Shown here in pieces: positions 3,690-37,947 of a stretch of 63,708 bases of DNA. Source of the stretch: a virus (lineage: Duplodnaviria > Caudoviricetes); IMG/VR virus record IMGVR_UViG_3300042938_000824, positions 1 through 63,708 of that record; one strand, written 5' to 3'. The notes beneath the pieces were generated by a model, which did not search any database, was not told where the DNA came from, and saw only the letters and a program-made list of their open reading frames with translations. A program made the position numbers and the translations under genes. Each line of letters starts with the position of its first letter. Within the stretch, counting starts at the first letter, position 1.

Positions 3690-3787
3690 AGACGGGCCTC
3701 AGACTGCCATGGTTCTGGGTATTGGTGGCCGCGTGGGCCACCGTCCTCCTGATCGCGTGGGCCACCAACACCGGCCTTATCAGTTGA
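3686..3787 (+). CDS. 33-aa single-TM peptide (not in ORF track)
   Basis: MKTGLRLPWFWVLVAAWATVLLIAWATNTGLIS*; ATGA overlap with the upstream gene. Confidence 0.55.
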   Translation: MKTGLRLPWFWVLVAAWATVLLIAWATNTGLIS

Positions 3788-6700
3788 CCTTGGCCCTCTT
3801 TTCCGCCTCGTCATAGTACGCCGCGACTGCGCGGTTCATCACTTCCGCCATGTCGTCGCGGATGTCGGACACCTTCTTCAGCCTTGCGGTCTGCGTCATG
3901 GTCTTGTTGTCCATCGCAGCGCGCAGCTTCTTCCGCAGATCCTTCAGCTGCCGGTCCGCCCGATCAAACGCGGACCGCACCCTTGAACTTGACGCGATGC
4001 GGGTCTTGCCTGAAGCCCGCAACTCCTTGTCCTCAAGTTCGTTCTCCGTGGTTTTTACCTCGCCAGCGAGGTCGTAGTATATGTCCTGCGCACCCCTCTT
4101 GGTCGAGGTTCCGGTCACGAAACGTTTGATCACCGGGATCTTGCCGAGGTCGACCTCTTCGCCAGCAATCACAGCCAGCGGTGCCTCCGTCAGCATGTAC
4201 TTGGCGTCGAGCAGGAACTTACCGGTGCCCGCAGTGGCGAACTCGAACCAGTACTGCAGGTGCTCAGGCGACCAGTCTAGGCCCCCCTTTCGCATCGCGT
4301 TGCCGCCCGTCAGGTCGTTGAGCTTTTGGGCCGCCCACACGAAGGTTCCATCCGTGCTCCGGTAGAAGCGCTCGCTCATGGGTTTGGTTTCGTCGTAGGT
4401 CGGCGGCACGATATCCATGTCCGCCCAATTCTTGTTGGACGCCAATTCGACAAGGGGGTCCACAAACCACGGCGATATGACCACGGCGGGGTTCGAGCTG
4501 GAACCGATGGGGCTGATCGCGCCTACCATGGCCGTGACCGCCCTGCCCATAGCTCCATCAGCCTTGATCGGCTGCCGGGGATTGGTGAAGCTGTCGATGG
4601 CTCGGTTGATATTGCGACCAAGGTTGTAGATCGCGCCATAGACGCCGATGGCCATCGGTATCTTCAACGGCTGGGTGATGCCGGGGACGCCGAACTTATG
4701 AACAGGCAAGACGATGTTGCGGGCCAGTTCGTCTTCCGACATCTGGTCGTAGTCCTTGATGCCGTTCTCGTCCTCATCATCGCTGACTGCGCGGTTGAGC
4801 GCGTCGAGCAAAACCGCCATGCCAATGACGCCGGTCAGGATACCTAGGCCCGCCTTCGACTTCAAGGCGCTGCCAGCCACGGCCATGCCGTTGGTGACGA
4901 CGCTCGCGAACAGGTAGCCGGTGTCCATGAGCTGCTTGTACTTGCCGCCCTTGTTGAAGTTGATGGTCAGGTTCTTGGCCGCGACACCAGCCTCGGTGAT
5001 TGATGCACCCGCATCACGCATGGCAGAGTACAGGCCCAAACGCATTGTGCCCTCGGCCACGTTGTTGAGGCCGTCCCACTTTGCCAGAGCGTAGTCGACA
5101 GCTTGGCCCGCCTTCGCGACAACGGCCTTGCCACCCTCCAAGGCACCGGCGTCACGGCGCAGCTTGTTGATCGTGGTCGCCAGATCGGTCGGCGCAAGGA
5201 AGGATACGATCCAGCCATTCTGCACCATCTCCTCGTAGTGGCGGGTCATCTTGCCGCTGCCCGGGGGAGCCTTCTGGTTGAGCTGGTACTCGCTGATCGC
5301 TATGGCGGCCTGCGGGATGCTGGCCACCATCTTCGGGATCAGGTTCTTTACGTCGTACTGCGCGGCGTTGATCAGGGCTTCCTGCGCGTCGCGCACGAAG
5401 TTGGTCAGCACGAAGTTCGGGTTACGCGACGTGATCAGCGCCGTGTAGGTCCGCCGCACCCACATCATTATCTGCAGGAGCTTGCCAAACTGCTCGATCA
5501 TCGGCGACCGCAGCGCATTGCTGATGTACATGTCGTCGGTCTGCAAGATGACGTCCTTGCCGTCTATCTTGAACACGAGGAAGCGTGGGTCGTTACGGAA
5601 TGAGGGGTCTACGATTTCTCGGATCATACCATCCGCGCCGTAGGCCAGACGCTTCGGGTACTGCGTCAGGATACTGATGCTGCCCTGCACCCCCGCAGCC
5701 TGCGCCTGCCGAATGGTATCGACCAGCGCCTTACCGACGCGGGCCCTCTCGCCCCTCATGACCGTCACGGCCTGCAAGGACACGAGGTTGGCGACGATGT
5801 CGCCAGCCTTGCTGGTGCGCCCGAACATACGCTTGTCGGGCCTCTTGCCCCACGACGTAAAGCCGCGACCGACGCCATCGGCCCGAGGTGGCTTCGTGAT
5901 GAAGTCGTTGGGGTCGGTGTCTTCGGTATCCCGCAGCGGCACCCAGTGCTGGAAGGGGGACGCGGCCAGAACGTCGGCGGTGATCTGCCCCGTTGCAAGC
6001 CGTGTTTGGTTGATGTCGGCAACGATGTCGTCAGCCATACGGCTGATCGCCATGAGGTCGGTGAAGGTGCCTTTCGCCCTTGCGTCGGCTATGATCTTGG
6101 CCGCCACGGCGTCGGTCATGCCAGAGGGGTCAGGCTTCTTCGAGCCGCGCGCACGCAGGTAATCGTTACGTTCCGGCGCGTGCAGGGCGTACAGGAAGTC
6201 GATCACGTCGTCATACGTAAAGCGCTTGGCCTTGATGCCCGCCTTCATGGCGTCAGTCAGCGGCGTGATGAACTGGCGCTCGCGCTGCTGGACTTGGAAG
6301 GCTGCCGCGCTACCGACCGACTGCTCGACGATGTAGGCGTTGAGGTCGGCAGGGATCGGGAGACCTTTCCTGACAAGCTCGTCGTAGTACTCCTTGATGG
6401 GCAGGAAGTTGTCCTGAAAGTTTATGCGGAGGTCAAAGATGCTGCCAGCGATGGGTATCGCCCGCTTGCTGCGCCCGAAGTTGTGCAGGTTCGTGCTGAA
6501 CCAGCCCTGCACCCTGTCGTAGATATTGCGGTGCACCATGCCGCCGTGGGGCGTAACCCGCGCGCGCGGACGACCCCTGCTGTAGCGGATGTCGGACCCA
6601 GCCGCAGACCAAGAGCCGCGGTCGGCAACGGCTGCCTTTGCCTGAGTTGGCTGGAAGGTGATGTAGGCGTCAGGCCCATCGGGTTCGGTACGGTACACGA

Positions 6701-9700
6701 TGCCGTCGTAGCCAGCCTCCATCACGGCGTCCTGCAAAGCGACGGGCCCATTGACCGTGTTGTCCATCACGCTGCGATAGAAGTCGGCGTCGATGACACC
6801 GAGGTCCAGCAACTGCTTGGCGACAGCGTCAGTTTTGAACGAGCCATCGTCTACGAGGGCCAGCGGGTTCTGGATCGACAGATATGACGGGTACCCCGGC
6901 CCCCGGTCACCTTGCGTGTTCGCCTGATCGACAGAGCCGAAGTGCGACCTGAACTCCGACGCCCTCGTGTCGAAGACACCGAGGTTACTGTCAGGAGTAC
7001 CGAGATCGTACACCCTCTTCGGCGCGCCGCTCTCGTCGACGACAGCGCTCTGCTTGAACCACGAATTGAAGGCGACGCTCGACAGGCCCTGACGCGGACC
7101 ACGCCGTTCGATGTCGAACTCGTACATGCCGAGCATGTCGACGAGGCTGCCGTTGGCGGTGAGCGTGTCGGCGTTCTCGATCTGCCCCTTGCCTGAAGGG
7201 TACAAGACCACGGGCATCGCCGTGGACTTACCAACGAGGGCGCGGGCCATGCCAACGCCATCGCTGTTCATGACCGGTACGGCACCAACCTTGCCGCTCT
7301 CGACAACGAGCGACGGCATGGTGTTGAACTTGAGGCCGTCGTTGGCCGCTGCGTTGTAGAGGGCCTGCTCGCGCACCGGTGCGGGGTCAGCGAGGCGCAG
7401 GAAGTCTTCGGGGTTCATGTAGACCAGCACGGCACCACGGTCGCCGTCACGCGCCATCTGCAACTGCTGGTACGCAACGTCGCCACCGAAGAAGGCGTTG
7501 CCGTCGCGCGTCTCGCTGAAGGCTGGAGCCGACGTATCGGCAGGCGATACCACCGCAGCCGCGGACCGCTTCGGGTCGCCGTAGTATTTGCCGCCGGGCA
7601 CGACGTCGTCGAGCATGGCGTAGAACTCAGGCGAGCCGACGTTGTAGCTGTTGGCCGCGGTAAGCTCCCCCATGTTGCCAGCACGGCCATCCAGCCATGT
7701 CCACTCTGGCATCAGGCCGGTCTTCTGGTCAGCGAAGACGGTATCCTCAACCGATGCGGAACGGTTCTTCTCGCCGTACGGGCCGTAGTTCAGCCAAGAG
7801 TTCTGGCCCCTCGTCTCGGTCGTGATCGCGCCGACAGCCGGTCCTTGGAACAGACGGACGTGGGCCTGCCACGCATTCTCTTCGCCGCGCGCACGGAAAC
7901 CAGCCCCCTCGAGGCCGTGGCCGAAGGCGTCGTGAACGGCGCGGAAGAGGTCGTTGGCCGTCACGTTGCGGAGGGGACCGGTCGGTGACCCCCACGCCCA
8001 CTTGATGTCGGTGCTTTGCAGGAGGGGATTACCGGTGACGTCGACGTCCGTGGCCCCGCTGCCGAAGCCGTCGGAAGTCGGGAACACCGCCATGCGCTTA
8101 TTGGCGCGCAGATCGCGCATGGCGTTCCACGGATTGCCGAAGCCGCCCTGCTGCCCTTCGTACGGATCCCGCCCATCGGGGTCACGGAAGTAGAACTGGT
8201 ACCCAGCCTGCTCGAGCGCGCGGTACTGGGCCACGGTCTGGCGGATTAAGTCTTGGTACGCCGCCACGACCTTTGGGTCTGTGGGGGCGTGCGGCATGAC
8301 ATCATAAGCCGCGGCGATACGCGCCGCGCGCTTGGGGTCTACCTCGACAAATTCGGATTGACGCCGGAGGTCGATGCCGTTGTCCCGAGCGTATTGCTCT
8401 GCGACGGCGAGGAGGCGCGCGTCCGGGCCCGATGCTCCTGCAACATTTGGCGCGCCTTCAAGAGGCGTACTGCTTGGGGTCGGTATCCGTCCTCCTCCGT
8501 CTCGGGAGGGGAGCCGCGACTGTTCCGCTGGTCCATACTTTATTCCTCGGCTGTAGAGATAGAAGTCACCCCGCCCCGGTACGCTTTGCCCGGAGGTAGA
8601 TCCATCAGCTCCTCTGGCATATCCACGATCTGCTGCCAGTTGTCCGGTACCGGACCGCTGAACGCGAGCGCGAGCCAGTTCTCCCTCGTAAGAGGTCGGC
8701 CTAGCCGCTGCAGCGCTACCACTATCGGGTCCGAGCCAAGTCGGGTCATTGATGCCTCCTGCAAGAGCCTCGATCTGCGTCCGGGCCGCGCCAACATCCA
8801 ACGCACCGGTCTTCACCGCGTTCCAGACGTTGAGCACCTGTTGTACTTTACCGGCGTTCCGCTTGTCAACGGCGGGAAATAAACCACGTATGGCCTCCCA
8901 CGTAATTGACTGCAATTCGCGCGGCAGAATGCCGAGCTGCTCGGCAGCGCGACGGTAAGCCTCGGCGTAGATACCGTAGGTACCTTGCGCGCCGTTGTCC
9001 GCGATATTTCTGGCCGCGATCCAACCAAGGGGCTGCTTCGATACGCCGGGGCTGGAGCCGAAGTTGTGGTGGACTTCAGGTGAGCTGCCCGACAACGGGC
9101 GTATCAGTGCCGCGGCCACCGCGTGGGTGTCGATTGTTACGTCACCCCACGGCGCTTTCGGCGCGAGGATGTTGTTATAGAAGTTGCGGACCTTGTGCTT
9201 CTCGCCCATCCGCTCGCTGACATTGTCGCGGGTCGGGTTGCCAATGGCACTGATCGCCTTGGCAATTTCGACGTTCGAGCCCCACGCCACGTTGCCTTCA
9301 GGCTGACCGATGAACTCGCCTTCGGGGCTGACCGTGCGGAACCCGCGCGGGTTGTAGGTCTCGTCGTAGATGCGGACCCACATGGCCTTGGTCAGGTCAT
9401 CCGGCATGTCGGTGAGCGTGCCGTTAAGCACGGTCTGCACATCATTGGCGTAGTCGGGTTTGGCGTAGATGCGCTGAGCGGTCGCGGCCATCTCCGGCGT
9501 AGGAGTGAACGCCCGATTGTTGCCGGTGGTGAACGATGTATAAATGTCGAGTACGCGCTCGGCGAGACTGACGTTCTGATACCAGTCTTTTTGCGGCGAC
9601 AATGACGCCAGCACCCCCGCGACAACGTAGTCGGGGAGATTGTACTGACGCGCCCAGCGTTCGGTGATGGTACGAGCGCCGTCGTACCAAAGCTTCGAGC

Positions 9701-12700
9701 GCTGTCGAATTTCCCCCGGCACACGGTTGTGCAGGTAGACAAGATTTCCGACAACGAAGTCGATGAAGTCTTCGGCGATCTGGTCCGGGATTGTCGCCGT
9801 GGTGCGGAAGCCGGGGTACGACTTCACAATTTGCATGTTAGCCGCAAATTTGGCGGGGTCCGCCTTCATCGCCGCGAGGTCGATGATCAGGTTGTCGGTC
9901 AACGGATTTTGCCGCGCCAGACCTCGTATGGTCGTGGGCTGGCGCGTTGAGATACGGTCGGGCGTGTCGCCGTTGGGCATCATGCGCGTCTGAAGAACGC
10001 CGCGGCTGTACCGCGTCTCGTCGCCGATGCCCGACAGGTCGATGATGTCTTCGCGCGGCTGAACCGGTTCGACCAGCGCCTCGGGCGGCAGCAGTGCCGC
10101 CTTCTGTTCAGCGAACTCGCGCATGTTCGGCGGCACGTAGCCAAGGGCGTCCGGTGCCGCGATGCTGCCATCGGTCAGACGCATCTTCGGGCCAGCATTC
10201 TGCCACGCCGACTGGGCCAGCATCTCGGTGGCGAGGGCGCGTGTGCCCTGATCCGAGTACATGCCCTTGAGCGTGTGGTACGCGCGGTAGTCGCCCAGCT
10301 GGCTGGGGACAGCACCCACCGGCGCGTAGCCATACACCTCGGCCACGACGCGCAGCAGATCACCGTTCGAGAGCGAGGAGCCATCCGGCGTGGTGATGCC
10401 CGACGGTTCCTGCATGGGGTGGTTACGGCGTGAGGGGTGGGGCGGGAACAGCTCGTTGCTGAGCCGCATCTTCACCTGACCATTGTCGGCGATGTCGTCG
10501 ATCAGTTCGCGCTGGTTGAGATACGGCTGGCCATTCTCCCGCCACGGCACGACCTCGACGTTGAGCGTGTTGAAGATGGCCTTGGTTTCGGCGACCAGCG
10601 ACGAGTACGCCTTGCCGACCGCGATGTTGCTGGGCTCGTGCTTGGCCTTGTCGTAGGCGTCGGCTAGCTTCATCAGGAAGCCTGCGTCTGGCGTGTCCCT
10701 GTTGGGCGTCGGCGACAGGTTGAGGTCCGTCTTGGCCTTCTCAAGCAGATCCTCGACGCGGTCGAACGAGCCGCGGGGCCCGACCATGAAGTCGTCACTC
10801 GGCGTCGTGCCAAGCACCGAACGGGGCCCGACGCGACCGACGCGGTCTTCGGCGGCCTGCTCGCGGGCCTGAAGGAACTCGCGCTGCGCCGCGAGCGTTT
10901 CTTCGGGCGTCGTTGCCACAGCCATGTCGGCTCTGGCCTTCTCCATCATTTCGACGGCGGCACCGCGGTACGACAGCGGTGCCTTGATGCGCGACCGCGC
11001 CAGCGTGCCGGTCTCGATGCTGCGGAAGATGTCGTCCGGCACCGAGCCAACCAGACGCTTGAACCACTCGACGATCTTCTCAAGAGCGGTGCGCGGCACG
11101 CCGGTCACGGCCCGCCTGTTGGCGGCCCACATGCGGAACGCTTCGGCGATAGCCTCTTCGACAACGACGTCGGGGCGGTCCCGTAGGTCGGGGTTGGTGT
11201 CGAACGCCGTCTCGAGGTACGTCTTGCCCGTCTTCGGGTGCGTTGCCTTCTCGACGTAGTTGGACAGAATTGACCACGCCCGTGTGCGGGGGGCCAGAAC
11301 ACCAGCCTCGCGGAGGGCGTGGACGGTTTCGTGGTCCATCACGCCAGCCAGCGCTTCGACGACCTCGTCGGTCGACATGTTGGGGTCGAGGTTCTCGACC
11401 GACAATTCGATGAGCTGATTGAGGTACGAACCCTCGATGCCACCTTCGCCTTCCTTGTCGGTGATCGCCAAGACGATCTGGACGCGGTTGCCGATCAGGG
11501 GCAGGGCGCGGCGGTTGGCCTGCTCGTTAAGCTTGTCGACGATCTCCTGCAGTCTGCCCTCTACCACCTTGGGGGTCGGGACGATCTGCTGGCGCGACCG
11601 CGCGATGACCGACGGTCGCGGCGCGCGCCCCGACGCGCGTGCTGCGGCCACTTCGTCTGCTATCTCTTGAAAGGCTTCTGGCCCCGTTCGAACGCGTGGC
11701 GGTGCGGCTCCTCGCGCCGTAAATCTTTCGGCTTCCGCCCGTGCGGTGTCTTCGGCGACGTGCGTACTGACGACAGCGCGGTCAACCAGATTGCCTTCGG
11801 CGTCGTAGCGGTTCTCGTAGACGGCGTAGCCCGGTCGGCCATCCATCGCCTTGCCTTCGGCGTCGACACCGCCGCGCGCAACTTCCACCCTGCTGGCCGG
11901 GAGTTGTTCAGCCTTCTCGCGCTCGCGGATCCCGCGCACGGCGTCCTTAGCCGCGACCTGATCCTCGAAGACACCGACGACCTTGCCGTCCTTCTTGACG
12001 GCAATGGTATCTAACGACACAGGGGCAACAGTGAAGGTCTTCAGCGGCGACTGGGTAGACGGGGCAGCGGGTCGTTCGTACGGCTTGAAGGTTCCGGGAC
12101 GGGTACCCGGCACCAAGTCGCCGCGCTGGACCATCTCGTCGCGGATCAGCTTGGCCGCGGCGGGTGTTGCGCCGGTCGCGTCCTGCAGACCCTTGAGAGT
12201 GAAGCGGCCAGCCGAGCGAACGGAGGCAACGCCTGCGCCATACTGCTCTTCGGTAAAGGGGCCAGTGCGCGCGACGGCGCTTTCCTGCGCCGGGCGCGTC
12301 GAAGACGCGAGGCCCTGCTCGCCGGTCAGCGGCTTGCGGGCGAGGATCAGTGCGTCGATGAAGCTTTGGTCGACCTTGGCATTCTTCATGTCGGCAACCG
12401 ACACGGGTGCATCCGGCTGACGCCCGGTACGCATCCGCCACAGGTTTACCTTGCCCGCGACGTCGGGGCCAACCTCGGACATGCTGAACGAGCCGATGGG
12501 CGTGGTGACTTCGCGGGCAGTGCCCAGCGTGGCCCGGGTGCGGTCGGCGGCCTTCTGCGCGATCTGCTCTTCGGTCGGCGAAAGCTTGATCGTCTGCTGC
12601 CGCGCGACGATGGGCGACACGATGTCTTCTGGTGCGGATGGGGGAGGCAGCGCCAACCGCTTCTCGCGCTCAATAGCCTTCGGCTGCGCCGCTACGTTGC

Positions 12701-13925
12701 CGAGCGTTTCCGCGATGCCGGGGTCGGCACCGGTGGGCACACCGAAGTTGGACCCAACGACCCTCTCGGTCGTCGGCGCGGCCTTGTCGTCGGGAACAAA
12801 GGGGCCCTGCGTAATCCGGTCGACGGCACTGACACCGCTCTGCGTGATACCGCCGCCAAAGGCCCCCGATAGGATCGCGGTCGTCAGCCGGTTCGAGGCC
12901 TCGGACCAAGTCATCTCTGGCTCAATAAAACCTTTGTCGAGCCCGATCTGGAGTAGAGCGGTAACGCCTTCCGACAGCCCTTCGGCTGCGACCTGCTCGC
13001 CAAGCTTGCGGAAGAACCGGCCCGGCCCCTGCTGCAGCAGCAGTCCGATGGGTAGGGCGGACGGGATTGCCTCGGACGCGCCAGACAGAACCCCGTACAG
13101 CGCGGCGTCGTTCGGGGAAAGACCTTCATCGCGCCCACGACCATAGCTCTGGCCTTGTGTCATGAGCTGGGCCTGCGCCAACACGGGAGCAGGGGTCTTC
13201 AGGAGAAGCGACGCAGCTATGGCAGGGGCCAGCTGGGCCGTCGAGCTTACAGCCGATACGCCAGCGCCAATAATGGAGCCGGGGACGACATTGACAGGAA
13301 TGCGTTCCGCCTCAATCTTCTTGCGTTCTTTCGCGCCTTCTTTTTCGAGCGCCTGAACACGCTCGTACGATGTACCCAACGGCCTGAAGTTTGGATCCTG
13401 CCCCTTCAACGCGGCTTCAAGCTCCGCCTTGCCCTGCGGCGTCTTGATGAAGGCCTCGACCTGAGCAGTCTGCGCCGGGTCGAGAATGTCGCGACCAGTC
13501 CCAGCAGGTTGTATGCCGAGCCTGCCCGAAGCCCAGCGGATCAGGTTCTGCTCGTCGAAGGAGGCTGTTCGGGTGGCGTTTAGCTTGTATTCGGGGCCGA
13601 TCTGCGCAAGCAGCTTGTCGGGGTCTCCAGCGGAGCCCTCGAAAAGCTGCTGCTTTATGCCGGAAAAAGCCTGCGGAAAATCGGACGCAAAAGCGTTAAT
13701 CGCCGACTTACCTGCAGCAACAAACGGGTTGTCGGCTTTACTCTTCCGCTCAAGGATATTCTGAATTTCGTTGGGGTACTTGGAGCTGATCAGTTCGGCG
13801 ATACGCTGCGGGGTTGTACCCGGCTTAAAAGCAACAAGCTGCCCATCGGGCATCTCTACAACGATGTCGTTTTCGGGCTGCTGTGGAGCCGTCGGAGGCC
13901 CGTAAGGTGACGCGCCAAACGACAT
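3780..13925 (-). CDS. Giant 3381-aa polyvalent virion/ejection protein (wHTH, zincin HExxH, HhH-like glycosylase, duplicated HDxxGH domain, ParB-like, ART-like, LPD38-like C-terminus)
   Basis: Last gene of the late operon after the ejection proteins; HETVH 11319-11333, KVRNF..VTIDTH ~9120-9195, HDAFGH ~7917-7934, WFKQSAVVDESG..GYDGIVY..DIRYSR ~6575-7070. Confidence 0.85.
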   Translation of the reverse strand: MSFGASPYGPPTAPQQPENDIVVEMPDGQLVAFKPGTTPQRIAELISSKYPNEIQNILERKSKADNPFVAAGKSAINAFASDFPQAFSGIKQQLFEGSAGDPDKLLAQIGPEYKLNATRTASFDEQNLIRWASGRLGIQPAGTGRDILDPAQTAQVEAFIKTPQGKAELEAALKGQDPNFRPLGTSYERVQALEKEGAKERKKIEAERIPVNVVPGSIIGAGVSAVSSTAQLAPAIAASLLLKTPAPVLAQAQLMTQGQSYGRGRDEGLSPNDAALYGVLSGASEAIPSALPIGLLLQQGPGRFFRKLGEQVAAEGLSEGVTALLQIGLDKGFIEPEMTWSEASNRLTTAILSGAFGGGITQSGVSAVDRITQGPFVPDDKAAPTTERVVGSNFGVPTGADPGIAETLGNVAAQPKAIEREKRLALPPPSAPEDIVSPIVARQQTIKLSPTEEQIAQKAADRTRATLGTAREVTTPIGSFSMSEVGPDVAGKVNLWRMRTGRQPDAPVSVADMKNAKVDQSFIDALILARKPLTGEQGLASSTRPAQESAVARTGPFTEEQYGAGVASVRSAGRFTLKGLQDATGATPAAAKLIRDEMVQRGDLVPGTRPGTFKPYERPAAPSTQSPLKTFTVAPVSLDTIAVKKDGKVVGVFEDQVAAKDAVRGIREREKAEQLPASRVEVARGGVDAEGKAMDGRPGYAVYENRYDAEGNLVDRAVVSTHVAEDTARAEAERFTARGAAPPRVRTGPEAFQEIADEVAAARASGRAPRPSVIARSRQQIVPTPKVVEGRLQEIVDKLNEQANRRALPLIGNRVQIVLAITDKEGEGGIEGSYLNQLIELSVENLDPNMSTDEVVEALAGVMDHETVHALREAGVLAPRTRAWSILSNYVEKATHPKTGKTYLETAFDTNPDLRDRPDVVVEEAIAEAFRMWAANRRAVTGVPRTALEKIVEWFKRLVGSVPDDIFRSIETGTLARSRIKAPLSYRGAAVEMMEKARADMAVATTPEETLAAQREFLQAREQAAEDRVGRVGPRSVLGTTPSDDFMVGPRGSFDRVEDLLEKAKTDLNLSPTPNRDTPDAGFLMKLADAYDKAKHEPSNIAVGKAYSSLVAETKAIFNTLNVEVVPWRENGQPYLNQRELIDDIADNGQVKMRLSNELFPPHPSRRNHPMQEPSGITTPDGSSLSNGDLLRVVAEVYGYAPVGAVPSQLGDYRAYHTLKGMYSDQGTRALATEMLAQSAWQNAGPKMRLTDGSIAAPDALGYVPPNMREFAEQKAALLPPEALVEPVQPREDIIDLSGIGDETRYSRGVLQTRMMPNGDTPDRISTRQPTTIRGLARQNPLTDNLIIDLAAMKADPAKFAANMQIVKSYPGFRTTATIPDQIAEDFIDFVVGNLVYLHNRVPGEIRQRSKLWYDGARTITERWARQYNLPDYVVAGVLASLSPQKDWYQNVSLAERVLDIYTSFTTGNNRAFTPTPEMAATAQRIYAKPDYANDVQTVLNGTLTDMPDDLTKAMWVRIYDETYNPRGFRTVSPEGEFIGQPEGNVAWGSNVEIAKAISAIGNPTRDNVSERMGEKHKVRNFYNNILAPKAPWGDVTIDTHAVAAALIRPLSGSSPEVHHNFGSSPGVSKQPLGWIAARNIADNGAQGTYGIYAEAYRRAAEQLGILPRELQSITWEAIRGLFPAVDKRNAGKVQQVLNVWNAVKTGALDVGAARTQIEALAGGINDPTWLGPDSGSAAAARPTSYEGELARARVQRSGTGQLAADRGYARGADGSTSGQSVPGRGDFYLYSRGIKYGPAEQSRLPSRDGGGRIPTPSSTPLEGAPNVAGASGPDARLLAVAEQYARDNGIDLRRQSEFVEVDPKRAARIAAAYDVMPHAPTDPKVVAAYQDLIRQTVAQYRALEQAGYQFYFRDPDGRDPYEGQQGGFGNPWNAMRDLRANKRMAVFPTSDGFGSGATDVDVTGNPLLQSTDIKWAWGSPTGPLRNVTANDLFRAVHDAFGHGLEGAGFRARGEENAWQAHVRLFQGPAVGAITTETRGQNSWLNYGPYGEKNRSASVEDTVFADQKTGLMPEWTWLDGRAGNMGELTAANSYNVGSPEFYAMLDDVVPGGKYYGDPKRSAAAVVSPADTSAPAFSETRDGNAFFGGDVAYQQLQMARDGDRGAVLVYMNPEDFLRLADPAPVREQALYNAAANDGLKFNTMPSLVVESGKVGAVPVMNSDGVGMARALVGKSTAMPVVLYPSGKGQIENADTLTANGSLVDMLGMYEFDIERRGPRQGLSSVAFNSWFKQSAVVDESGAPKRVYDLGTPDSNLGVFDTRASEFRSHFGSVDQANTQGDRGPGYPSYLSIQNPLALVDDGSFKTDAVAKQLLDLGVIDADFYRSVMDNTVNGPVALQDAVMEAGYDGIVYRTEPDGPDAYITFQPTQAKAAVADRGSWSAAGSDIRYSRGRPRARVTPHGGMVHRNIYDRVQGWFSTNLHNFGRSKRAIPIAGSIFDLRINFQDNFLPIKEYYDELVRKGLPIPADLNAYIVEQSVGSAAAFQVQQRERQFITPLTDAMKAGIKAKRFTYDDVIDFLYALHAPERNDYLRARGSKKPDPSGMTDAVAAKIIADARAKGTFTDLMAISRMADDIVADINQTRLATGQITADVLAASPFQHWVPLRDTEDTDPNDFITKPPRADGVGRGFTSWGKRPDKRMFGRTSKAGDIVANLVSLQAVTVMRGERARVGKALVDTIRQAQAAGVQGSISILTQYPKRLAYGADGMIREIVDPSFRNDPRFLVFKIDGKDVILQTDDMYISNALRSPMIEQFGKLLQIMMWVRRTYTALITSRNPNFVLTNFVRDAQEALINAAQYDVKNLIPKMVASIPQAAIAISEYQLNQKAPPGSGKMTRHYEEMVQNGWIVSFLAPTDLATTINKLRRDAGALEGGKAVVAKAGQAVDYALAKWDGLNNVAEGTMRLGLYSAMRDAGASITEAGVAAKNLTINFNKGGKYKQLMDTGYLFASVVTNGMAVAGSALKSKAGLGILTGVIGMAVLLDALNRAVSDDEDENGIKDYDQMSEDELARNIVLPVHKFGVPGITQPLKIPMAIGVYGAIYNLGRNINRAIDSFTNPRQPIKADGAMGRAVTAMVGAISPIGSSSNPAVVISPWFVDPLVELASNKNWADMDIVPPTYDETKPMSERFYRSTDGTFVWAAQKLNDLTGGNAMRKGGLDWSPEHLQYWFEFATAGTGKFLLDAKYMLTEAPLAVIAGEEVDLGKIPVIKRFVTGTSTKRGAQDIYYDLAGEVKTTENELEDKELRASGKTRIASSSRVRSAFDRADRQLKDLRKKLRAAMDNKTMTQTARLKKVSDIRDDMAEVMNRAVAAYYDEAEKRAKVN
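8339..8536 (-). CDS. Second nested 65-aa gene in the +1 frame of the giant gene
   Basis: GAGGAaTAAagtATG: starts 3 nt after the stop of the first nested ORF; acidic patch then helix AVRLLKARQMLQEHRAR. Confidence 0.5.
   Translation of the reverse strand: MDQRNSRGSPPETEEDGYRPQAVRLLKARQMLQEHRARTRASSPSQSNTLGTTASTSGVNPNLSR
8540..8749 (-). CDS. Nested 69-aa gene in the +1 frame of the giant gene (candidate immunity protein)
   Basis: AGGAGG-catca-ATG; MTRLGSDPIVVALQRLGRPLTRENWLALAF..; hand-counted GC3 48/69 in this frame vs 33/69 in the host frame. Confidence 0.7.
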   Translation of the reverse strand: MTRLGSDPIVVALQRLGRPLTRENWLALAFSGPVPDNWQQIVDMPEELMDLPPGKAYRGGVTSISTAEE

Positions 13926-15113: not shown

Positions 15114-16031
15114 TTACAGGAAGAAGCCCGCGCCAGCCGTCACCGCCCCGATGAGCTGCGACAGGAAGTCGGGTGCTGGCTGGGTAGTGGTCTGGGTCGT
15201 AGTCGGCTGGATAGGCTGGCCGTAGAGCAGCGACGAGTACTTCGAGAGTTGCTCGTAGGGGTAATCGCGCTGCCTCTGGAAGTCCTGATACGCCAGATCA
15301 AGGCCAGCCTGCTCGCGCTGCTGCTCCTTCGCGCCGATGCCAGACAGCGCCTCGGCTCCAGAGAAGCCGTACTGCTGCAACATCTTCTGCAGGTCAGCGC
15401 CGGTCTTCGCAGCGTCAAGAGACAGGCCAGCGCCCATGCGGCGGCTTTCTTCGTTGGCCATCTGGGCCTGAAGGTTACGCGCCTGATCCGAGGTGAACAA
15501 ACCGCTCGCCGTATCGAAGCCGCGCTGCAGGCCTTCGGCCTCGATGCCCTGCATCTGCTGGTTCAGGTCGCGCTGGGCGAGGCTGTCCTGAACGAAGCGG
15601 CGGTTGCCGCCAAAGGCACCAGCTTGGATGGCGGACGCATCGCGGCCAGCCTGCTGTTCCTGATACGCCTGCTGAGCACGCTGCTTCTGCACATCCAGCA
15701 CGTTCTGGATGTAGGGGTTCATGTACCCCTGAATGTTGGCCTGCGTAAAATCCTGCGTCGAGATCTGACCCGGCTGGAAGCCGGAAACGCCCTGCGCCGT
15801 CTGCATGGCGTTAGTGATGCCGGTCGGATCCTGACCGGCGGTGTCGCGCATCTGGGTGAATGCGGCCTGCGTGTCGGGGGAGAACTGGGCCAGACGCTGA
15901 CCGCCATACTGCTGGTACGGCATGGTCGATACCGTCTCGGCACGGGGCAGGAACCTGTCGACGTACGGCTTGATGTACCCCGGCAACTCGCTTGTCGTAG
16001 TAGTCGTGGTGCTGTCGTCGCCCTTAGACAT
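15114..16031 (-). CDS. DNA pilot/ejection protein
   Basis: Thr-rich N-terminus, YMNPY, AGAFGG, Gln-rich coiled coil, hydrophobic C-terminus. Confidence 0.7.
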   Translation of the reverse strand: MSKGDDSTTTTTTSELPGYIKPYVDRFLPRAETVSTMPYQQYGGQRLAQFSPDTQAAFTQMRDTAGQDPTGITNAMQTAQGVSGFQPGQISTQDFTQANIQGYMNPYIQNVLDVQKQRAQQAYQEQQAGRDASAIQAGAFGGNRRFVQDSLAQRDLNQQMQGIEAEGLQRGFDTASGLFTSDQARNLQAQMANEESRRMGAGLSLDAAKTGADLQKMLQQYGFSGAEALSGIGAKEQQREQAGLDLAYQDFQRQRDYPYEQLSKYSSLLYGQPIQPTTTQTTTQPAPDFLSQLIGAVTAGAGFFL

Positions 16032-19395: not shown

Positions 19396-19707
19396 CTAGA
19401 CCGTGACGGTCAATGTACCCACGGACCCCGTCGCCGACAGGCTGGTTGGTCCGATGTATGCGTAGTTGGCGAGAACGACCTTGAGAACGTCGGCGTCGCG
19501 ATAGACTTCACCAACAATAAGGCCAACAGGGTTATCGGGCAAGCTCGGCAGATACAGCCTGCCGCCGCGCAGCACAGCCGGGAAATCTGCAAGGCGTGTG
19601 TAGTTTTCGATCCAGCGGTTCAGCTGGAAGGCCCAGTTCTGGTTGTACTCGAACGGGGCTCGAGGTGGTGCTGGTGGGAGGGCAGCCGTCGATTTGGGCT
19701 GGCTCAT
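19396..19707 (-). CDS. Small tail-associated protein (103 aa, start MSQPKS)
   Basis: ATGA overlap with the upstream nozzle gene; ends SATGSVGTLTVTV. Confidence 0.7.
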   Translation of the reverse strand: MSQPKSTAALPPAPPRAPFEYNQNWAFQLNRWIENYTRLADFPAVLRGGRLYLPSLPDNPVGLIVGEVYRDADVLKVVLANYAYIGPTSLSATGSVGTLTVTV

Positions 19708-21641
19708 CGCTGGCCATCCGGGCTGGCGTACAGGCGAGGCACGCCCAGCTGCCACAGCGTTCCGTCAGTGTCCGTGGCCACGGTGAAGTCAATCGAACGG
19801 GCGCGGAAGCGGCGGTCGAGCTTGTCCGTGTACTCCTCAACGGGCACCAGCAACGTGCCAGCCGCGGTGCGCGTGATATTCGGATCCGGCCCCGTCACGA
19901 AGCCTGAACCCGGGTAATCGCGCTTGTTGAACCTGAAGGTAATGCGAGGCGTCTGCGTGTTCGAGCCGTAGAAATTGACGTCTGGGATGATACGGCTGAT
20001 CAGCATAAAATCCATGCCGCTGCCGATTTCAAACACCGACGACGTCAGGTAGGCGTCTAGCTTCGCGCCGGGTGCGACCGAGTTATCGCGGGTGCCCAAG
20101 TCCTGCATGTAGATGTAGCCATCAGGCGACGCCGCGAGGGGTACGTCCTCGTGCCATGCATCGAGCCAAGTGGTGCGGCCAACGTCGTTGTAGCTGCCGT
20201 AGTACCAGATCAGGTTCGAGGGATCTTCGTAGTTGCAGACCACGTAGAAGTTGCACTCCTCCGATCCGTTGACGGGGATGTGCCAGATCACTTCCTTGTA
20301 CTGGCGGTCGACACCGGCGTAGATCTTGTCGGTCTGGTTGAAGTTCAGGATCGAGAAGATGTACTGGCGCACCGAGCACGGCATGTCGCGCACGACGCCG
20401 TCGTACATTTGGAAGACGCCATTCGCCATCCAGAAAGTCATTGCACCTGTGGAGATGACGGCGTTGGGCCCGATCAGGTGGATGTTCGTGCCGATGCGGA
20501 CTTCGCCGAAGGTGTAGGGGGGACCAACGTACTTGAAGCTGTGCAGGCTGACGTCGGTGAAGATCAACACTTCGGTGGTCGTCTCAATGGCCTTCAGGAT
20601 GCTGGAGCCGACGCCGAGGCGAAGTTCGCCCGCGCTGTTGGTGGTGTCGGGGAACCACACGGTCTTGTCTTCGGTGGTCGACCACCTGATCAGGACGGGA
20701 TCCTGCGTATCGCTGTCGAGGGGGTTGGCACCAAAGCAGATGACGTGTCGGCTGTTGTCGCTGACCAAGACCTGAGATGCGACGACGGGCACGTATTGCT
20801 GGATGGCCGACGCGGCGGTCGAGCGCAGCGTCACGGCACGGCCACTGACCGTCGAGGTGTCCTTGAAGTACACGCCAGCATTGCGGGCGTTGAATAGGAT
20901 GTCTTCGCCGAAGGCGTCCTCAGACCACAGGCGAATGCCTTCGGTCGTCAGAGGATCGCCGGTGCCCTGACCCCAACCAACCGAACCGTTCCAAGTGCCG
21001 GTGCCCCAACCATCGCCAGTCTGCGCCGTCGCGAAGCCGACGTTGATCTGGTACTCGGCGGTAACCGTTCCGCCGCCGGTGGCAACTGTAGATGTGACTG
21101 GCGACGAGGTGGTCAGCGTGAACGTGTAGCTGTCGGCGTTGATGACTTCGACGACCTGAAACTCACCCTCGAAGTCGGCGAGGGCGATGCCGCCGAGGGT
21201 GCCAACGATGCTGGCGAGATCGAAGGTCACGAAGTCGCCGACGTCGCAACCATGAGCCGTGTCGGCGACCGTGATCAGGTGGCTGGTGACGCTCGTCGCT
21301 GCTACGGTGGTAAAGGGGTCAGTGAGGCTTGCGGTATCCCGTAGGGGCGTGATGTCGACGAGCTGGCTGCCCTGAATGAGGTAGTACTTGAGGTTGGTGC
21401 CAGCAGCGTAGAGGTTCAGGCCGTTCAGTTTGGTGAAGGGGAAGAGGCTGCGGAAGGTTCCTTCGGCGGGCGAGGACGTAAACTTCGACCAGCCGCCCAT
21501 GCTCTCAGCGGTGCCCGAGCGCCAACGGATCAAATTGCAGTCATACCAACCGCCGGTGTTGCCGTAGTTGGTCGTCTCCCGATTTACACCGGGGCGGAAC
21601 TGCAGCTTGATGGGGTCTGGTGCGGGTCCGCCTTCGGCCAT
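19704..21641 (-). CDS. Tail nozzle / packaged-DNA stabilisation protein
   Basis: PGVNRETT, IRWST, GPPYTFG motifs; 645 aa, beta-rich; position. Confidence 0.75.
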   Translation of the reverse strand: MAEGGPAPDPIKLQFRPGVNRETTNYGNTGGWYDCNLIRWRSGTAESMGGWSKFTSSPAEGTFRSLFPFTKLNGLNLYAAGTNLKYYLIQGSQLVDITPLRDTASLTDPFTTVAATSVTSHLITVADTAHGCDVGDFVTFDLASIVGTLGGIALADFEGEFQVVEVINADSYTFTLTTSSPVTSTVATGGGTVTAEYQINVGFATAQTGDGWGTGTWNGSVGWGQGTGDPLTTEGIRLWSEDAFGEDILFNARNAGVYFKDTSTVSGRAVTLRSTAASAIQQYVPVVASQVLVSDNSRHVICFGANPLDSDTQDPVLIRWSTTEDKTVWFPDTTNSAGELRLGVGSSILKAIETTTEVLIFTDVSLHSFKYVGPPYTFGEVRIGTNIHLIGPNAVISTGAMTFWMANGVFQMYDGVVRDMPCSVRQYIFSILNFNQTDKIYAGVDRQYKEVIWHIPVNGSEECNFYVVCNYEDPSNLIWYYGSYNDVGRTTWLDAWHEDVPLAASPDGYIYMQDLGTRDNSVAPGAKLDAYLTSSVFEIGSGMDFMLISRIIPDVNFYGSNTQTPRITFRFNKRDYPGSGFVTGPDPNITRTAAGTLLVPVEEYTDKLDRRFRARSIDFTVATDTDGTLWQLGVPRLYASPDGQR

Positions 21642-29217: not shown

Positions 29218-29646
29218 TTATGCCCAGACACGAGCGCGCAGATTGATTACACCGGGATCAAACAGCCGCACACCATTCGGCCCCTCATACCCAGCCGGAA
29301 CGCCCGCCTCGGTGATCGGCTTGAAGTCGAGGTCTTGGATGATCTGGAGCAAGTGCGTGCGCGTGAACACGTCGCCTTCTTGCGGCAGGCCGTAGGTGAC
29401 CTGATCTGCAAACTCACCATAGGCGCGGAGGTTGACGTGGTGGCCGTGGACTATGACAGCGGGTGTTAGCTCGTTGCCATCTTCGTCATAGGTTGCGCGG
29501 GTCTTGGGAACAGGGCCTAGCTCGTCAATCAACACGCCATCGGTTGGGGTGAGGATGTCGTCGGCGTAGGTGGCAAGGCCGTTCTGGACCATGCCGGTGA
29601 TGAACTGCTCGCGGGTTGGTGCCCATACCATGAGGTCGATGATCAT
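29218..29646 (-). CDS. Hypothetical protein, possible fibre chaperone
   Basis: ATGA-coupled behind the spike/fibre gene; GHHVNLR, RVWA C-terminus. Confidence 0.6.
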   Translation of the reverse strand: MIIDLMVWAPTREQFITGMVQNGLATYADDILTPTDGVLIDELGPVPKTRATYDEDGNELTPAVIVHGHHVNLRAYGEFADQVTYGLPQEGDVFTRTHLLQIIQDLDFKPITEAGVPAGYEGPNGVRLFDPGVINLRARVWA

Positions 29647-31802
29647 GTTGATAGCACCTGTAGTTCTGCGTCCGTCTTCCGCACTGCGTAATAGTCAAGG
29701 CGCTTGATGTGGCCGTTGAGGTTGTGCTGGCCGTCGAACTGCCTACCAAGACGAAGTATGTTGACGGTGGGCATTGTACCAGCACCATCGGTAGCAACCG
29801 TCCCGCCATTGATGCAAGCTGCAAAGTCATTAGCTGCGAACGCTTGCGCGGACTTCGCAAAAACGCCAGTTACAAAAGTGCCAGCATCGAGATCGGCGAC
29901 CGTAACGCCGCCATCCACAACAAAAAGATGGCTCGCGGCTTTTGCGTTGCTGAGTATGCGCTCATTAGCCGTACCATCGCTGAGTTCATACACGAACGCC
30001 AGTGCTGTTCCCCCATTGGCAGCCTCGTAGGCGAATGTCCCTGCCGTCGCGCTATACGGAAACGCACTCGTCAGAATGGTTATGTTGTCCGCTGCACGGG
30101 TGACTTGCGAGGCCACGGTGGCAATCGGGCTTGTGATGAACGCGCCGTTCTCAATTTGGAACAGCGCAACGTCGATAGCATCGCCGCTTGTTGCCATGCG
30201 GATGATGAGTGGTGGGTTGGTGACGGTCGCTGATGCTGTAGCGACACGGGTCCAGCTAGAGGTCACGGTGACTGTGGTTTCAGATGCCACCTTGCAGCTA
30301 ATATTATCAAAGTAACCAGTGCGCCCTAACACCGCCTGATTTGATGACACACGGATAAAGGTGCTTGTTGATGACGCAACAAAATACAAAAAGCCATCGA
30401 CGTTCGATGCGCTGGTTAGTGTAACAAAGGTTTCGGCCCCACCTGCGGTCTTACGCACCTCAATGCCTGCGCTTGAAGATGTCCCCCGCCGAGCCGTATA
30501 CCCAACTATATACGCGGTTCCCACTACCGTCGCAAAAGCATCGCTATCCGCAAACCCTGCGGAAGCACCAGTGTTGGTAACTTCTAGTTCGCCTGAAACA
30601 ACCGCTAACGTTGCGGCAGTAGCCGTCCACCCAGTCGTATCCGTTGGGAAAGTTCCATTGACGACCAGTTCGCTTCCGGTCGTCGCTCCTTGGCTCAGAT
30701 AGACCGCCCCCGTGCCCGTCCGCCGCTTGACGAACATGGATGTGATGCGGGCAGCTGATGCGGATGTAATGTCCTGCCGTGCCGTGGCGTTGGCGGCAGT
30801 GGCGGTAAGCGTCGATGCGCTATTGGCGACACCATCCGGGCCGGTTGCCGTCTTGGCCGTGGTGAGGTTCGATTTGACCCATGCCGCGTTGGTGAAATCG
30901 TCGGAGTAGAGGCAGAGGTTCGTCCTTGCCTCCTCGATCAGCACGCCTAGCGCTGCACCCGTGGTCGGGTTGTAATTCCGTGGGAGGGAGTAGACGGCGG
31001 CGGTAGTGGTGGGGATGTAGGTGAGGGCGGAGGAGCCGAGGTTTAGCTGAGCGCCCCATGCATAAATAAACTCACCCACACCTTCGACTTGTCCGGTAAC
31101 ACCCACGAAAAATCGAATGCTGTCCCCGACTGTTGCAGTCAGACTAAACGGCATTACAATCCGCCACCAGCCGTTTCCGACATCGGTTGCCGTTGCTCCG
31201 CTACCTGTAATATGCGTTATGGCCCCGGTAGACCAATCAATTGTTATCGAAACAGCGTTAACTCCTGTCGTGTTATTCCTAACAACAAATCTGTTACTAT
31301 CCGCCGCGCCCGATCCAATTTTTGCGTAAACTGAATAAACGTATGCCCCAGTCCCCAATGTCGTCAAGGTCTGAATAATCTGAGCACCGGCAGATGGTGC
31401 GTTTATTGTATTCTCAATCTTATCAGCGGTGAGCGTTCCGTCCGGCGCGACTACATCCGCTGTGTTAACAACAGACACATTTGTCTTCACCCAAGTTCCA
31501 CTATTGAGTGTCTGGCTTTGCAGCAGCAAATTATGCGGCGCATACCTCAGCACCCCATCCGACCCATAGACCAGCTTCGGCGAGGGAGCCGTGTACGTGA
31601 GAATGCTGTCTGGCGTGACGATTCCACCACCGGAGGACTTGTAGGCTTGGTTCTCGTCGAACCACAGGGCGAGGTTGGCACCGGTGGCAGCGATGCCGCC
31701 CACGTTGGCGAGGAGAGATGGCGGGGTTGACAACGTCGTAGACGAAATCAGCCCCGGCAAGCCGCCCCATAGACCAATGGCACCAGTGTACAAGCCCGCC
31801 AT
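29643..31802 (-). CDS. Head spike/fibre protein with tandem carbohydrate-binding-like modules (719 aa, start MAGLYT)
   Basis: AGGAGG RBS before 31802; repeated NL..S....W, APDG..TA, GVLIEEARTN, WGAQL. Confidence 0.7.
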   Translation of the reverse strand: MAGLYTGAIGLWGGLPGLISSTTLSTPPSLLANVGGIAATGANLALWFDENQAYKSSGGGIVTPDSILTYTAPSPKLVYGSDGVLRYAPHNLLLQSQTLNSGTWVKTNVSVVNTADVVAPDGTLTADKIENTINAPSAGAQIIQTLTTLGTGAYVYSVYAKIGSGAADSNRFVVRNNTTGVNAVSITIDWSTGAITHITGSGATATDVGNGWWRIVMPFSLTATVGDSIRFFVGVTGQVEGVGEFIYAWGAQLNLGSSALTYIPTTTAAVYSLPRNYNPTTGAALGVLIEEARTNLCLYSDDFTNAAWVKSNLTTAKTATGPDGVANSASTLTATAANATARQDITSASAARITSMFVKRRTGTGAVYLSQGATTGSELVVNGTFPTDTTGWTATAATLAVVSGELEVTNTGASAGFADSDAFATVVGTAYIVGYTARRGTSSSAGIEVRKTAGGAETFVTLTSASNVDGFLYFVASSTSTFIRVSSNQAVLGRTGYFDNISCKVASETTVTVTSSWTRVATASATVTNPPLIIRMATSGDAIDVALFQIENGAFITSPIATVASQVTRAADNITILTSAFPYSATAGTFAYEAANGGTALAFVYELSDGTANERILSNAKAASHLFVVDGGVTVADLDAGTFVTGVFAKSAQAFAANDFAACINGGTVATDGAGTMPTVNILRLGRQFDGQHNLNGHIKRLDYYAVRKTDAELQVLST

Positions 31803-31815
31803 CCCCGCCTCCTGC

Positions 31816-37787: not shown

Positions 37788-37947
37788 TGAGGCGTTTGCG
37801 CTCCTCGACGAACATGGTCAGTTCGCGCAAGGTAGCGAGGCGGCCTACTGCCTCACGATAGGCCGCGTAATCTTGAGGCTGCCCCGACAAGATCGTTGTC
37901 GAGACAGCCTCAATTTTTTCCTTAAGCTCTTTGTCGAGCGCCCTCAT
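37762..37947 (-). CDS. Small hypothetical protein
   Basis: ATGA-coupled to portal; G...DY..Y...VG. Confidence 0.65.
   Translation of the reverse strand: MRALDKELKEKIEAVSTTILSGQPQDYAAYREAVGRLATLRELTMFVEERKRLSDGDDSDD

Follow-up and report, generated by a model that had tools for sequence, protein, structure and literature searches.

A widespread gene nested out of frame in a giant phage polyvalent-protein gene encodes a predicted partner of the adjacent glycosylase-fold module

We analysed a stretch of viral DNA of 63,708 bp (IMG/VR record IMGVR_UViG_3300042938_000824, Caudoviricetes), a complete contig of about 62% GC that we call the window, and focus on one giant gene on its minus strand. 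This single open reading frame (ORF) encodes a polyvalent protein of 3381 residues that strings together several unrelated modules, two of which have a small ORF in the +1 frame beside them (n1 and n2). An earlier note, made from the letters of the window alone, had read the two ORFs as immunity genes nested beside effector domains, and had supposed that an effector domain keeps its activity where its inhibitor is kept and decays where it is lost. We find that n1 has the sequence signatures of a real and widespread gene, that its product is predicted to bind the adjacent DUF7178 module, and that this module is predicted to have the fold of helix-hairpin-helix (HhH) GPD DNA glycosylases. The proposed coupling between a nested partner and an intact active site does not hold across relatives. 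The features are as follows; positions are those of the window, and residue numbers are those of the 3381-residue protein.

3780..13925, minus strand: gene for the polyvalent (virion- and ejection-associated) protein, a single ORF of 3381 codons that spans all the features under study
10692..11555, minus strand: zincin-like region, a backbone domain; its HExxH motif reads DHETVH (residues 864-869, positions 11319-11336)
9996..10691, minus strand: HD1-type domain, a degenerate paralogue of HD2 and a backbone domain; AEVYGY (residues 1195-1200, positions 10326-10343)
8736..9995, minus strand: DUF7178 module with a predicted HhH-GPD glycosylase fold (residues 1311-1730); Lys1578 (positions 9192-9194); IDTH (residues 1598-1601, positions 9123-9134), which includes Asp1599
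8540..8749, minus strand: n1, a 69-codon gene in the +1 frame over a low-complexity main-frame linker; ATG at 8749 after AGGAGG
8339..8536, minus strand: n2, a 65-codon ORF in the +1 frame and a candidate gene, at the 5' edge of HD2; ATG at 8536 after GAGGAA
7626..8420, minus strand: HD2 module, a variable cassette; HDAFGH (residues 1998-2003, positions 7917-7934), GEE (residues 2014-2016, positions 7878-7886) and ETRGQNSW
7071..7535, minus strand: probable ParB/Srx-like domain, a backbone domain; VYMNPEDFL (residues 2168-2176) and SDGVGMA (residues 2221-2227, positions 7245-7265), without G.HR
6573..7070, minus strand: ART-PolyVal module without the strand-1 His and with the Asp of YDG kept; VYDLGT (residues 2305-2310, positions 6996-7013); Pfam span residues 2297-2437

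Results

The n1 ORF stands out from the gene that contains it. A codon-usage scan of all 3381 codons picks out one strong stretch in which the +1 frame scores above the main frame, at residues 1721-1840 (positions 8406-8765), and there the GC content of main-frame third codon positions drops from 0.785 to 0.42-0.5. This stretch holds both n1 and n2, which share the same +1 frame and are separated by one TAA and one codon. Among the 32 same-strand alternative-frame ORFs of at least 40 residues in the giant gene, n1 alone outscores the main frame (+0.49 vs -0.46) and n2 ties with it. The start of n1 is tightly packed: the main-frame peptide AGGINDPTW (residues 1722-1730, positions 8760-8749) closes the DUF7178 module, and the codons for its A-G-G-I-N-D also spell the AGGAGG and the ATG of n1, so that one stretch of DNA in the window is at once the C-terminal end of the module, the Shine-Dalgarno (SD) site of n1 and the n1 start codon.

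The gene accompanies DUF7178 almost everywhere. A hidden Markov model built from four n1 copies recovered unseeded copies in further loci and, in a set of 88 DUF7178 loci (the window and 87 viral contigs), n1 is present in 85, every time in the +1 frame and at the 3' end of the module. The three loci that lack it are L053, which ends 21 nt past the domain, and L001 and L009, which share another +1 ORF at the n1 position (L001:6666-7208 and L009:~4300-4470; RAF.K..G.E.TE.E...LD...SGLP). This suggests, at the sequence level, that the nested partner has been replaced in L001 and L009. In 82 of the 85 loci, the conserved part of n1 follows an ATG that has an SD-like tetramer. The main frame crosses n1 in 65 of 84 loci and ends before it in the other 19, so that in those 19 loci n1 is an ordinary, partly overlapping downstream gene.

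Conservation follows the n1 frame rather than the main frame. When the same nucleotides of the 65 nested loci are read in each frame, identity is 0.449 for n1, 0.368 for the main frame and 0.334 for the third frame, and the n1 frame is the more identical of n1 and main in 85% of 599 pairs. Moreover, a protein database held 304 matches to n1 at E<=1e-3 among 518 candidates, none of them with a Pfam domain. The n1 proteins are acidic, with a median pI of 4.5 and a median net charge of -5 (n=85). By these marks of conservation n1 is a real, widespread gene with its own start signals, and an embedded overlapping gene.

The module that n1 adjoins has the predicted fold of a DNA glycosylase. It matches Pfam DUF7178 (E 5.7e-27 for the segment), which has at least 544 relatives among viral contigs, and its AlphaFold2 model, built with 52 sequences, scores a pLDDT of 93.6 and a pTM of 0.92. 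We compared this model by VIA with 48,161 PDB chains, without Foldseek preselection: the top 22 matches are all HhH-GPD-type or DUF2419 proteins (Z 9.5-4.7), and the first match outside these groups is unrelated, at Z 4.2. The best match, at Z 9.5 and an rmsd of 3.8 over 184 residues, is the Tm1821 8-oxoG glycosylase; queuosine-salvage hydrolases of DUF2419 match at Z 8.9 and 8.6; and the others include endonuclease III, AGOG, OGG1, MagIII, Mag1, ROS1, NTHL1, MutY, MUTYH, MIG and AlkA. Foldseek returned only two entries above a probability of 0.1, both AGOG (E 0.083, probability 0.72; E 0.17, probability 0.60). The DUF7178 profile found no match among PDB sequences. On the evidence of the model, DUF7178 has a two-lobed helical HhH-GPD fold with a helix-hairpin-helix.

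Conserved residues of the module resemble those of such enzymes, in which the catalytic Asp comes about 20 residues after the Lys of the helix-hairpin-helix. Lys268, Asp289, Thr290 and His291 of the segment (Lys1578 and Asp1599-Thr-His of the protein) are invariant in the 52 sequences. Lys1578 and Asp1599 are 21 residues apart, with the Asp at the start of a helix that reads T-I-D-T-H-A, and we take this spacing and context to recall the VDTH signature of EndoIII-type HhH-GPD enzymes. From the fold and these residues we infer a DNA glycosylase activity for the module.

Complex prediction places n1 on this module. Three runs gave an interface score (ipSAE) of 0.74, 0.88 and 0.74, and the best of three controls scored 0.00; the mark set for this score is reached by 58 of 80 solved complexes and by 2 of 110 mismatched pairs, an approximate calibration in which our own alignments were used. 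The runs have at least 83% of their contacts in common, and the pLDDT of the partner is at least 76. The predicted contacts on the module, in segment numbering, are residues 134-135 (the invariant S-P of SPQKDW), 238-249 (with the invariant Trp238), 261 and 264-266. The last two sets lie in the hairpin between helices 256-262 and 267-277, which is the predicted helix-hairpin-helix. The n1 product is thus predicted to bind the adjacent DUF7178 module.

The giant protein combines a fixed framework with exchangeable parts. Its 19 full-length relatives share a fixed N-terminal region, the zincin-like, HD1-type and ParB-like domains, often an ART module, and a C-terminal region with LPD38. Variable cassettes sit between HD1 and the ParB-like domain, and in the window these are DUF7178 and HD2. 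Relative P0136 carries a DUF7178 module (residues 1627-2046) that is 90% identical to that of the window (residues 1311-1730) in proteins that are otherwise 31-40% identical, and the main-frame linker over n1 is also similar between the two, which indicates that module and nested gene were transferred recently as a unit. Relatives P0122 and P0124 lack DUF7178; at its place P0122 has an intact ART and P0124 an unrelated insert of about 630 residues. These sequence comparisons support an exchange of modules as cassettes among the giant relatives.

The zincin-like and HD1-type domains belong to the framework. The zincin-like segment is present in 19 of 19 full-length relatives at 33-79% identity; it has no Pfam or NCBIfam match, and we assign it tentatively, from its HExxH motif and its conservation. 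A +1 ORF just upstream of it (positions 11586-11795, minus strand) was considered as a third nested candidate on a marginal codon score (-0.01 vs -0.17) and rejected, since it is rich in Arg, Thr and Pro and has no protein-like pattern; the main frame there resembles a genuine, small domain with an Ala/Arg-rich linker after it. The HD1-type domain holds a fixed place after the zincin in 19 of 19 relatives. It is homologous to HD2 (BLASTP E 6e-8), with AEVYGY opposite HDAFGH and GDY opposite GEE, and in a wider alignment it also lacks most of the ETRGQNSW block. HD..GH is exact in 6 of the 19 HD1-type copies of the relatives.

The ParB/Srx-like segment is likewise old. A set of 1.84 billion representative proteins contains 23 relatives of it, and the proteins in which they lie are nearly all 1800-3700 residues long. 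The canonical (H/S)(D/N)G.HR is present in 4 of 24 aligned rows (P0138, P0141, P0143 and P0144); the window reads SDGVGMARAL at this site and so lacks the conserved active-site Arg, and G.HR is missing from most rows while the remainder of the domain is well conserved. We checked the assignment by structure. The AlphaFold2 model has a pLDDT of 87.3; the top ten Foldseek matches are all ParB/Srx proteins, though weak (the best is Osa, E 0.031, probability 0.97); and all 19 matches listed by VIA are ParB/Srx proteins too (Osa, Z 5.1, rmsd 4.4 over 111 residues). Furthermore, the profile of the segment finds SbnI first among PDB sequences, weakly (E 0.044) and aligned exactly on DGvHR. The Pfam ParB models match neither this domain nor its canonical relatives. 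The ParB/Srx assignment is probably right.

Both domains appear to have been retained rather than left to decay. By sequence comparison, the HD1-type and ParB-like domains belong to the conserved backbone, and the loss of their catalytic residues is old and has recurred in many lineages. Their presence in all 19 full-length relatives, together with the conservation of the rest of each domain, points to retention with a changed role, and they probably serve non-catalytic roles.

The ART module is the one domain with an apparently recent loss. It matches ART-PolyVal (PF18760) at 35.8 bits when the segment is searched alone (cut-off 31.2), and at 28.8 bits, under the cut-off, within the whole protein. 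The ART-PolyVal triad consists of a His in strand 1, a Tyr in strand 2 and an Asp in strand 5, as described by Iyer et al. 2017 (PMC5512222). The strand-1 His is kept in 14 of 16 ART modules of giant relatives and in 8 of 8 from viral contigs and phage records. Its position is Asp in the window, whose VYDLGT aligns with V-Y-H-G-T, and in the closest orthologue, P0122 (module 76% identical). The loss is shared by the window and this orthologue and is absent from orthologues at 52-53% identity, so that it looks recent; of the three eroded domains, only the ART shows such an apparently recent loss, that of its NAD-site His. A second loss (strand-2 Tyr to Gly) was considered and rejected: the strand-2 column, as assigned from the alignment, is Phe, in HFG, in all modules of the same subfamily.

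Does the integrity of a catalytic motif follow the presence of a nested partner? The descriptive part of the earlier note was borne out. The two modules flanking the nested ORFs carry K..IDTH and HDAFGH..GEE at the places quoted, and 94 of 98 DUF7178 loci and 88 of 91 HD2 loci keep these motifs. The first HD copy, the ParB/Srx-like domain and the ART are eroded as it had said (AEVYGY, SDGVGMA in place of GxHR, and VYDLGT in place of VYHGT). No SD-led nested ORF lies beside these three: the codon-usage scores of the alternative-frame ORFs there are -0.69 to -0.98, and those of the main frame +0.47 to +0.81. The zincin keeps its HExxH with no credible nested ORF beside it.

The generalisation built on this pattern did not survive comparison with relatives. 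Nested genes follow the module family (n1 with DUF7178, n2 with HD2) and not the state of the motif. Indeed, 25 of 26 ART modules with the His in the fetched loci have no alternative-frame signal within 300 nt, and the single signal lies at the start of an adjoining HD2; similarly, 13 of 13 HD1-type modules with an intact HD..GH have none. Our detector of alternative frames found 30 of 97 n1 sites and 58 of 133 upstream sites of HD-type modules (31-44%), with 0 of 97 false calls inside DUF7178. At this power about nine detections would be expected at the ART modules and about four at the HD1-type modules if partners were present. In the window itself, the chance that both of two partners fall among the three intact of six domains is 3/15, or 0.2, so that the pattern in this one protein is weak evidence.

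Two broader proposals of the earlier note fared unevenly. In its nested effector-immunity model, the part about n1 stands, as an apparently real gene whose product is a predicted binder of its module, and the coupling of partner to integrity falls. In its cycle of cassette gain and decay, the exchange is supported by P0136, and the decay is not, because the HD1-type and ParB-like domains are old backbone rather than decaying orphans.

The second nested ORF, n2, adjoins a module of a different kind. HD2 keeps HD..GH, GEE and ETRGQNSW together in the same 88 of 91 loci. It matches PHROG 3170 (E 1.7e-13), a family without an assigned function; its profile gave only chance-level matches among PDB sequences, and the ESM Atlas only unnamed viral clusters. 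Its cluster of His, Asp and Glu residues would suit a metal-dependent hydrolase. In 58-65 of 89 loci the HD2 start is preceded, at a distance of about 90 nt, by a +1 motif, DPN.PETEEDG.RAEALRRLKV. Over a span of 60 codons, 46 of these 89 loci have an open +1 frame, where synonymous resampling predicts 23; for the +2 frame over the same span the figures are 8 observed and 8.8 expected. Moreover, 333 database proteins of about 61 residues match n2. We take n2 for a candidate gene that keeps to the 5' edge of HD2 and may encode a similar partner.

Other modules of the HD subfamily follow another conserved +1 ORF, KRE(D/N)F.T.E(D/E)(F/Y)EEAL.F(Y/F)KH. In about 20 of 67 such loci, codon usage signals the +1 frame at 195-360 nt upstream of the module. 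Examples of this ORF are:

L230:2043-2360
L067:975-1157
L076:1657-1887

The genome setting of the giant gene is that of a virion protein. Matches to PHROG families place it as follows:

15114-16031: DNA ejection protein
19704-21641: virion structural protein
29643-32072: tail protein
37944-40442: portal
2064-2774: endolysin
15-2045: primase

The 3381-codon gene lies at the edge of the structural block and adjoins the ejection-protein gene. Pfam recognises three domains in its product, DUF7178, ART-PolyVal and LPD38 (residues 3057-3265, E 2.3e-30); with the ParB/Srx-like fold and the two HD-type domains, the one ORF holds several unrelated modules. The C-terminal 930 residues match PHROG families of giant phage proteins, to which no function is assigned there. 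Because it joins many domains in one ORF and has virion genes as neighbours, the product is a polyvalent protein of the phage type that Iyer et al. 2017 describe.

Sequence searches add little to this picture. Pfam, PHROGs and NCBIfam hold no named family for the zincin, HD1, HD2, ParB-like, n1 or n2 segments. A sequence search with the 1661-residue middle region of the protein found nothing in the PDB, Megablast of the giant-gene region against phage records gave no match, and a search of viral contigs with the ParB and ART segment found no related loci.

A short peptide recurs at module ends. ETRYSRG (residues 1303-1309, positions 9999-10019), FYLYSRG (residues 1788-1794, positions 8544-8564) and DIRYSRG (residues 2445-2451, positions 6573-6593) are the ends of successive modules in the window, and almost all ART modules of 16 relatives and of 8 homologues from contigs or phages end in PDIRYS. 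The ...YSRG peptide may be a junction, or a processing signal for the built-in zincin.

Discussion

We favour an explanation in three parts, and hold it, taken whole, to be likely though well short of certain: the giant gene consists of a conserved backbone with exchangeable cassettes; n1 is the keeper of a glycosylase-fold module; and the eroded domains are not orphaned cassettes. Proteins of the polyvalent kind are packaged in the virion and are probably delivered along with the DNA. In its most likely role, the n1 product would sit on the helix-hairpin-helix surface of the DUF7178 module as a cognate inhibitor or keeper, and would keep this glycosylase-like module from acting on DNA in the cell that produces the phage, much as Ugi does with uracil-DNA glycosylase.

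Ugi, a small acidic protein, is a phage inhibitor of the uracil-DNA glycosylase of the host. Like Ugi, n1 is small, acidic and a predicted binder of the DNA-binding face of a glycosylase-fold enzyme. Unlike Ugi, whose target is a host enzyme of a different fold, n1 would have as its target the phage's own HhH-GPD-fold module; the likeness drawn here is one of proposed role. A wider proposal is that polyvalent cassettes carry their own regulators out of frame in their linkers, that n1 is a Ugi-like, DNA-competitive inhibitor left behind at packaging or injection, and that n2, the ORF of L001 and L009 and the KREDF..EEAL.FYKH ORFs are of the same general class. This we put forward tentatively, as a possibility that is rather less probable than otherwise.

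Is n1 an inhibitor? It could be a real partner of another kind: a chaperone for folding or packaging, an adaptor that helps to bring the module into the capsid, or a stable subunit that is delivered along with it. The conservation of n1 and its predicted binding are equally expected of such a partner; small acidic chaperones are common in phage morphogenesis; and for most stand-alone DUF7178 genes the pair adjoins structural genes, as the giant gene does here. Yet the contacts at the hairpin of the helix-hairpin-helix (264-266), the conserved surface nearby and the acidic charge of n1 fit a DNA-competitive binder somewhat better than a chaperone or subunit, and we think a non-inhibitory partner unlikely, if by no means far-fetched. 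The earlier model, in which every effector domain needs a nested immunity gene, orphans become inactive and the three eroded domains are such orphans, draws on the window, where both modules next to nested ORFs keep their family-invariant residues and three other domains do not, on the predicted binding of n1 to its own module, and on the movement of cassettes. It has to contend with the absence of signal at 25 of 26 intact ART and 13 of 13 intact HD1-type modules (about nine and four detections expected), with HD1-type and ParB-like domains that stand at the same position in 19 of 19 full-length relatives and are conserved in the rest of the domain, with a zincin whose HExxH is intact beside no credible nested ORF, and with a six-domain pattern that chance alone yields with probability 0.2. 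We consider it improbable.

Two further explanations concern whether n1 and n2 are genes at all. A programmed +1 ribosomal frameshift could make n1 an alternative C-terminus of DUF7178: the n1 frame is always +1, n1 starts right at the end of the conserved domain, and the main frame is open across n1 in 65 of 84 loci. But an ATG and an SD-like site precede the conserved part of n1 in 82 of 85 loci and the start position varies relative to the domain end; moreover, we noticed no conserved slippery site at the junction, although no dedicated search for one was made. In the complex model n1 docks as a separate chain, which is compatible with a fusion as well. We judge a frameshift very improbable. 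Even harder to credit is that the nested ORFs are by-products, frames that stay open in the GC-rich, low-complexity DNA of linkers and yield no product. The GC content of the genome is 62%, and the coding strand of the giant gene alone has 32 alternative-frame ORFs of at least 40 residues; for n2, the main-frame peptide is the better conserved, Gly- and Arg-rich codons favour an open and well-scoring +1 frame, and such openness is expected already in 23 of 89 loci. Against this stand, for n1, homologues in the 19 loci whose main frame ends before n1, start signals in 82 of 85 loci, conservation above that of the main frame and 304 database proteins. For n2, the +1 frame is open in 46 loci against the 23 expected while the +2 frame is as expected (8 vs 8.8), and the 333 database proteins share a uniform length of about 61 codons.

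Several points weigh against the reading of n1 as the keeper of a glycosylase-fold module in a cassette. Lys268 and Asp289 are not among the predicted n1 contacts. The ipSAE values express the confidence of the model only. A Z score of at most 9.5 is moderate for a helical protein, and likeness of fold shows no activity; that Lys1578 and Asp1599 may be the catalytic pair of HhH-GPD enzymes we infer from their spacing and the EndoIII-type signature. Over a fixed span with synonymous resampling, the n1 frame is open in 33 of 74 loci against 28.8 expected, which is not significant. At n2, an alignment anchored on the main frame gives the main-frame peptide (G.L.PLEGAP..GA.GPD) an identity of 0.408 and the +1 frame 0.338, with the +1 frame higher in 26% of pairs, and a main frame rich in Gly and Arg may be enough to raise the +1 codon score. 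With a detector power of 31-44%, nested genes at the ART and HD1-type modules are made unlikely and no more. Finally, the comparison with the giant relatives P0122-P0142 was one of proteins.

How does this locus compare with known systems? In Iyer, Burroughs, Anand, de Souza and Aravind 2017 (PMC5512222), the polyvalent proteins of phages and conjugative elements are likewise giant multidomain products of genes in a virion-gene block, with a mosaic domain content that includes ART-PolyVal, ParB-type, zincin-like HExxH and LPD38 modules. Unlike those described there, the present protein has an HhH-GPD-fold module and a separate, out-of-frame small gene in a linker. The words overlapping, frameshift, glycosylase and linker are absent from the main text of that paper, and its supplementary full domain lists may bear on this point.

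HhH-GPD glycosylases (EndoIII/Nth, MutY, OGG, AGOG, AlkA, MagIII) and DUF2419 share with DUF7178 the predicted fold and perhaps the arrangement of its invariant Lys and, 21 residues later, Asp. By contrast with them, DUF7178 has 420 residues with extra helices, lies inside a virion polyprotein and has no sequence match in the PDB. The Rz/Rz1 genes of phage lambda are embedded overlapping genes, the small +1 gene having its own start and lying wholly inside the larger. n1 similarly has its own start in the +1 frame of a larger gene, and in both cases the products are thought to work together. Unlike Rz, the gene that hosts n1 is a 3381-codon effector polyprotein gene, the overlap lies on a disordered linker rather than a functional domain, and in 19 of 84 loci n1 is only a 3'-overlapping downstream gene. 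As in the effector-immunity pairs of polymorphic toxins, the partner gene is tied to its module and travels with it as a cassette (P0136); unlike in those pairs, n1 lies out of frame inside the gene of the effector and not downstream of it, and any toxicity of the module is putative.

Embedded +1 phage genes, effector-immunity pairs and Ugi-type inhibitors are already known kinds. Our literature search found no mention of DUF7178, and in the overlapping-gene literature the term polyvalent protein was not found among the matches listed. No publication that we found describes an HhH-GPD-fold module in a polyvalent protein, or a partner gene that overprints the linker of one.

It is thought that a phage delivers polyvalent proteins into the cell as its first weapons, yet most of their modules have no known function. 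For DUF7178 there is now a concrete, if predicted, identity: a module with a DNA-glycosylase fold. In nearly all loci it is accompanied by a gene hidden in another frame, whose product is its predicted binding partner, and annotation pipelines miss such genes. The comparison across relatives also corrects an attractive generalisation, since catalytic loss in the neighbouring domains is not tied to a missing nested partner. If n1-type proteins are indeed inhibitors, they would explain how a DNA-damaging effector can be made without harm to the phage's own replication.

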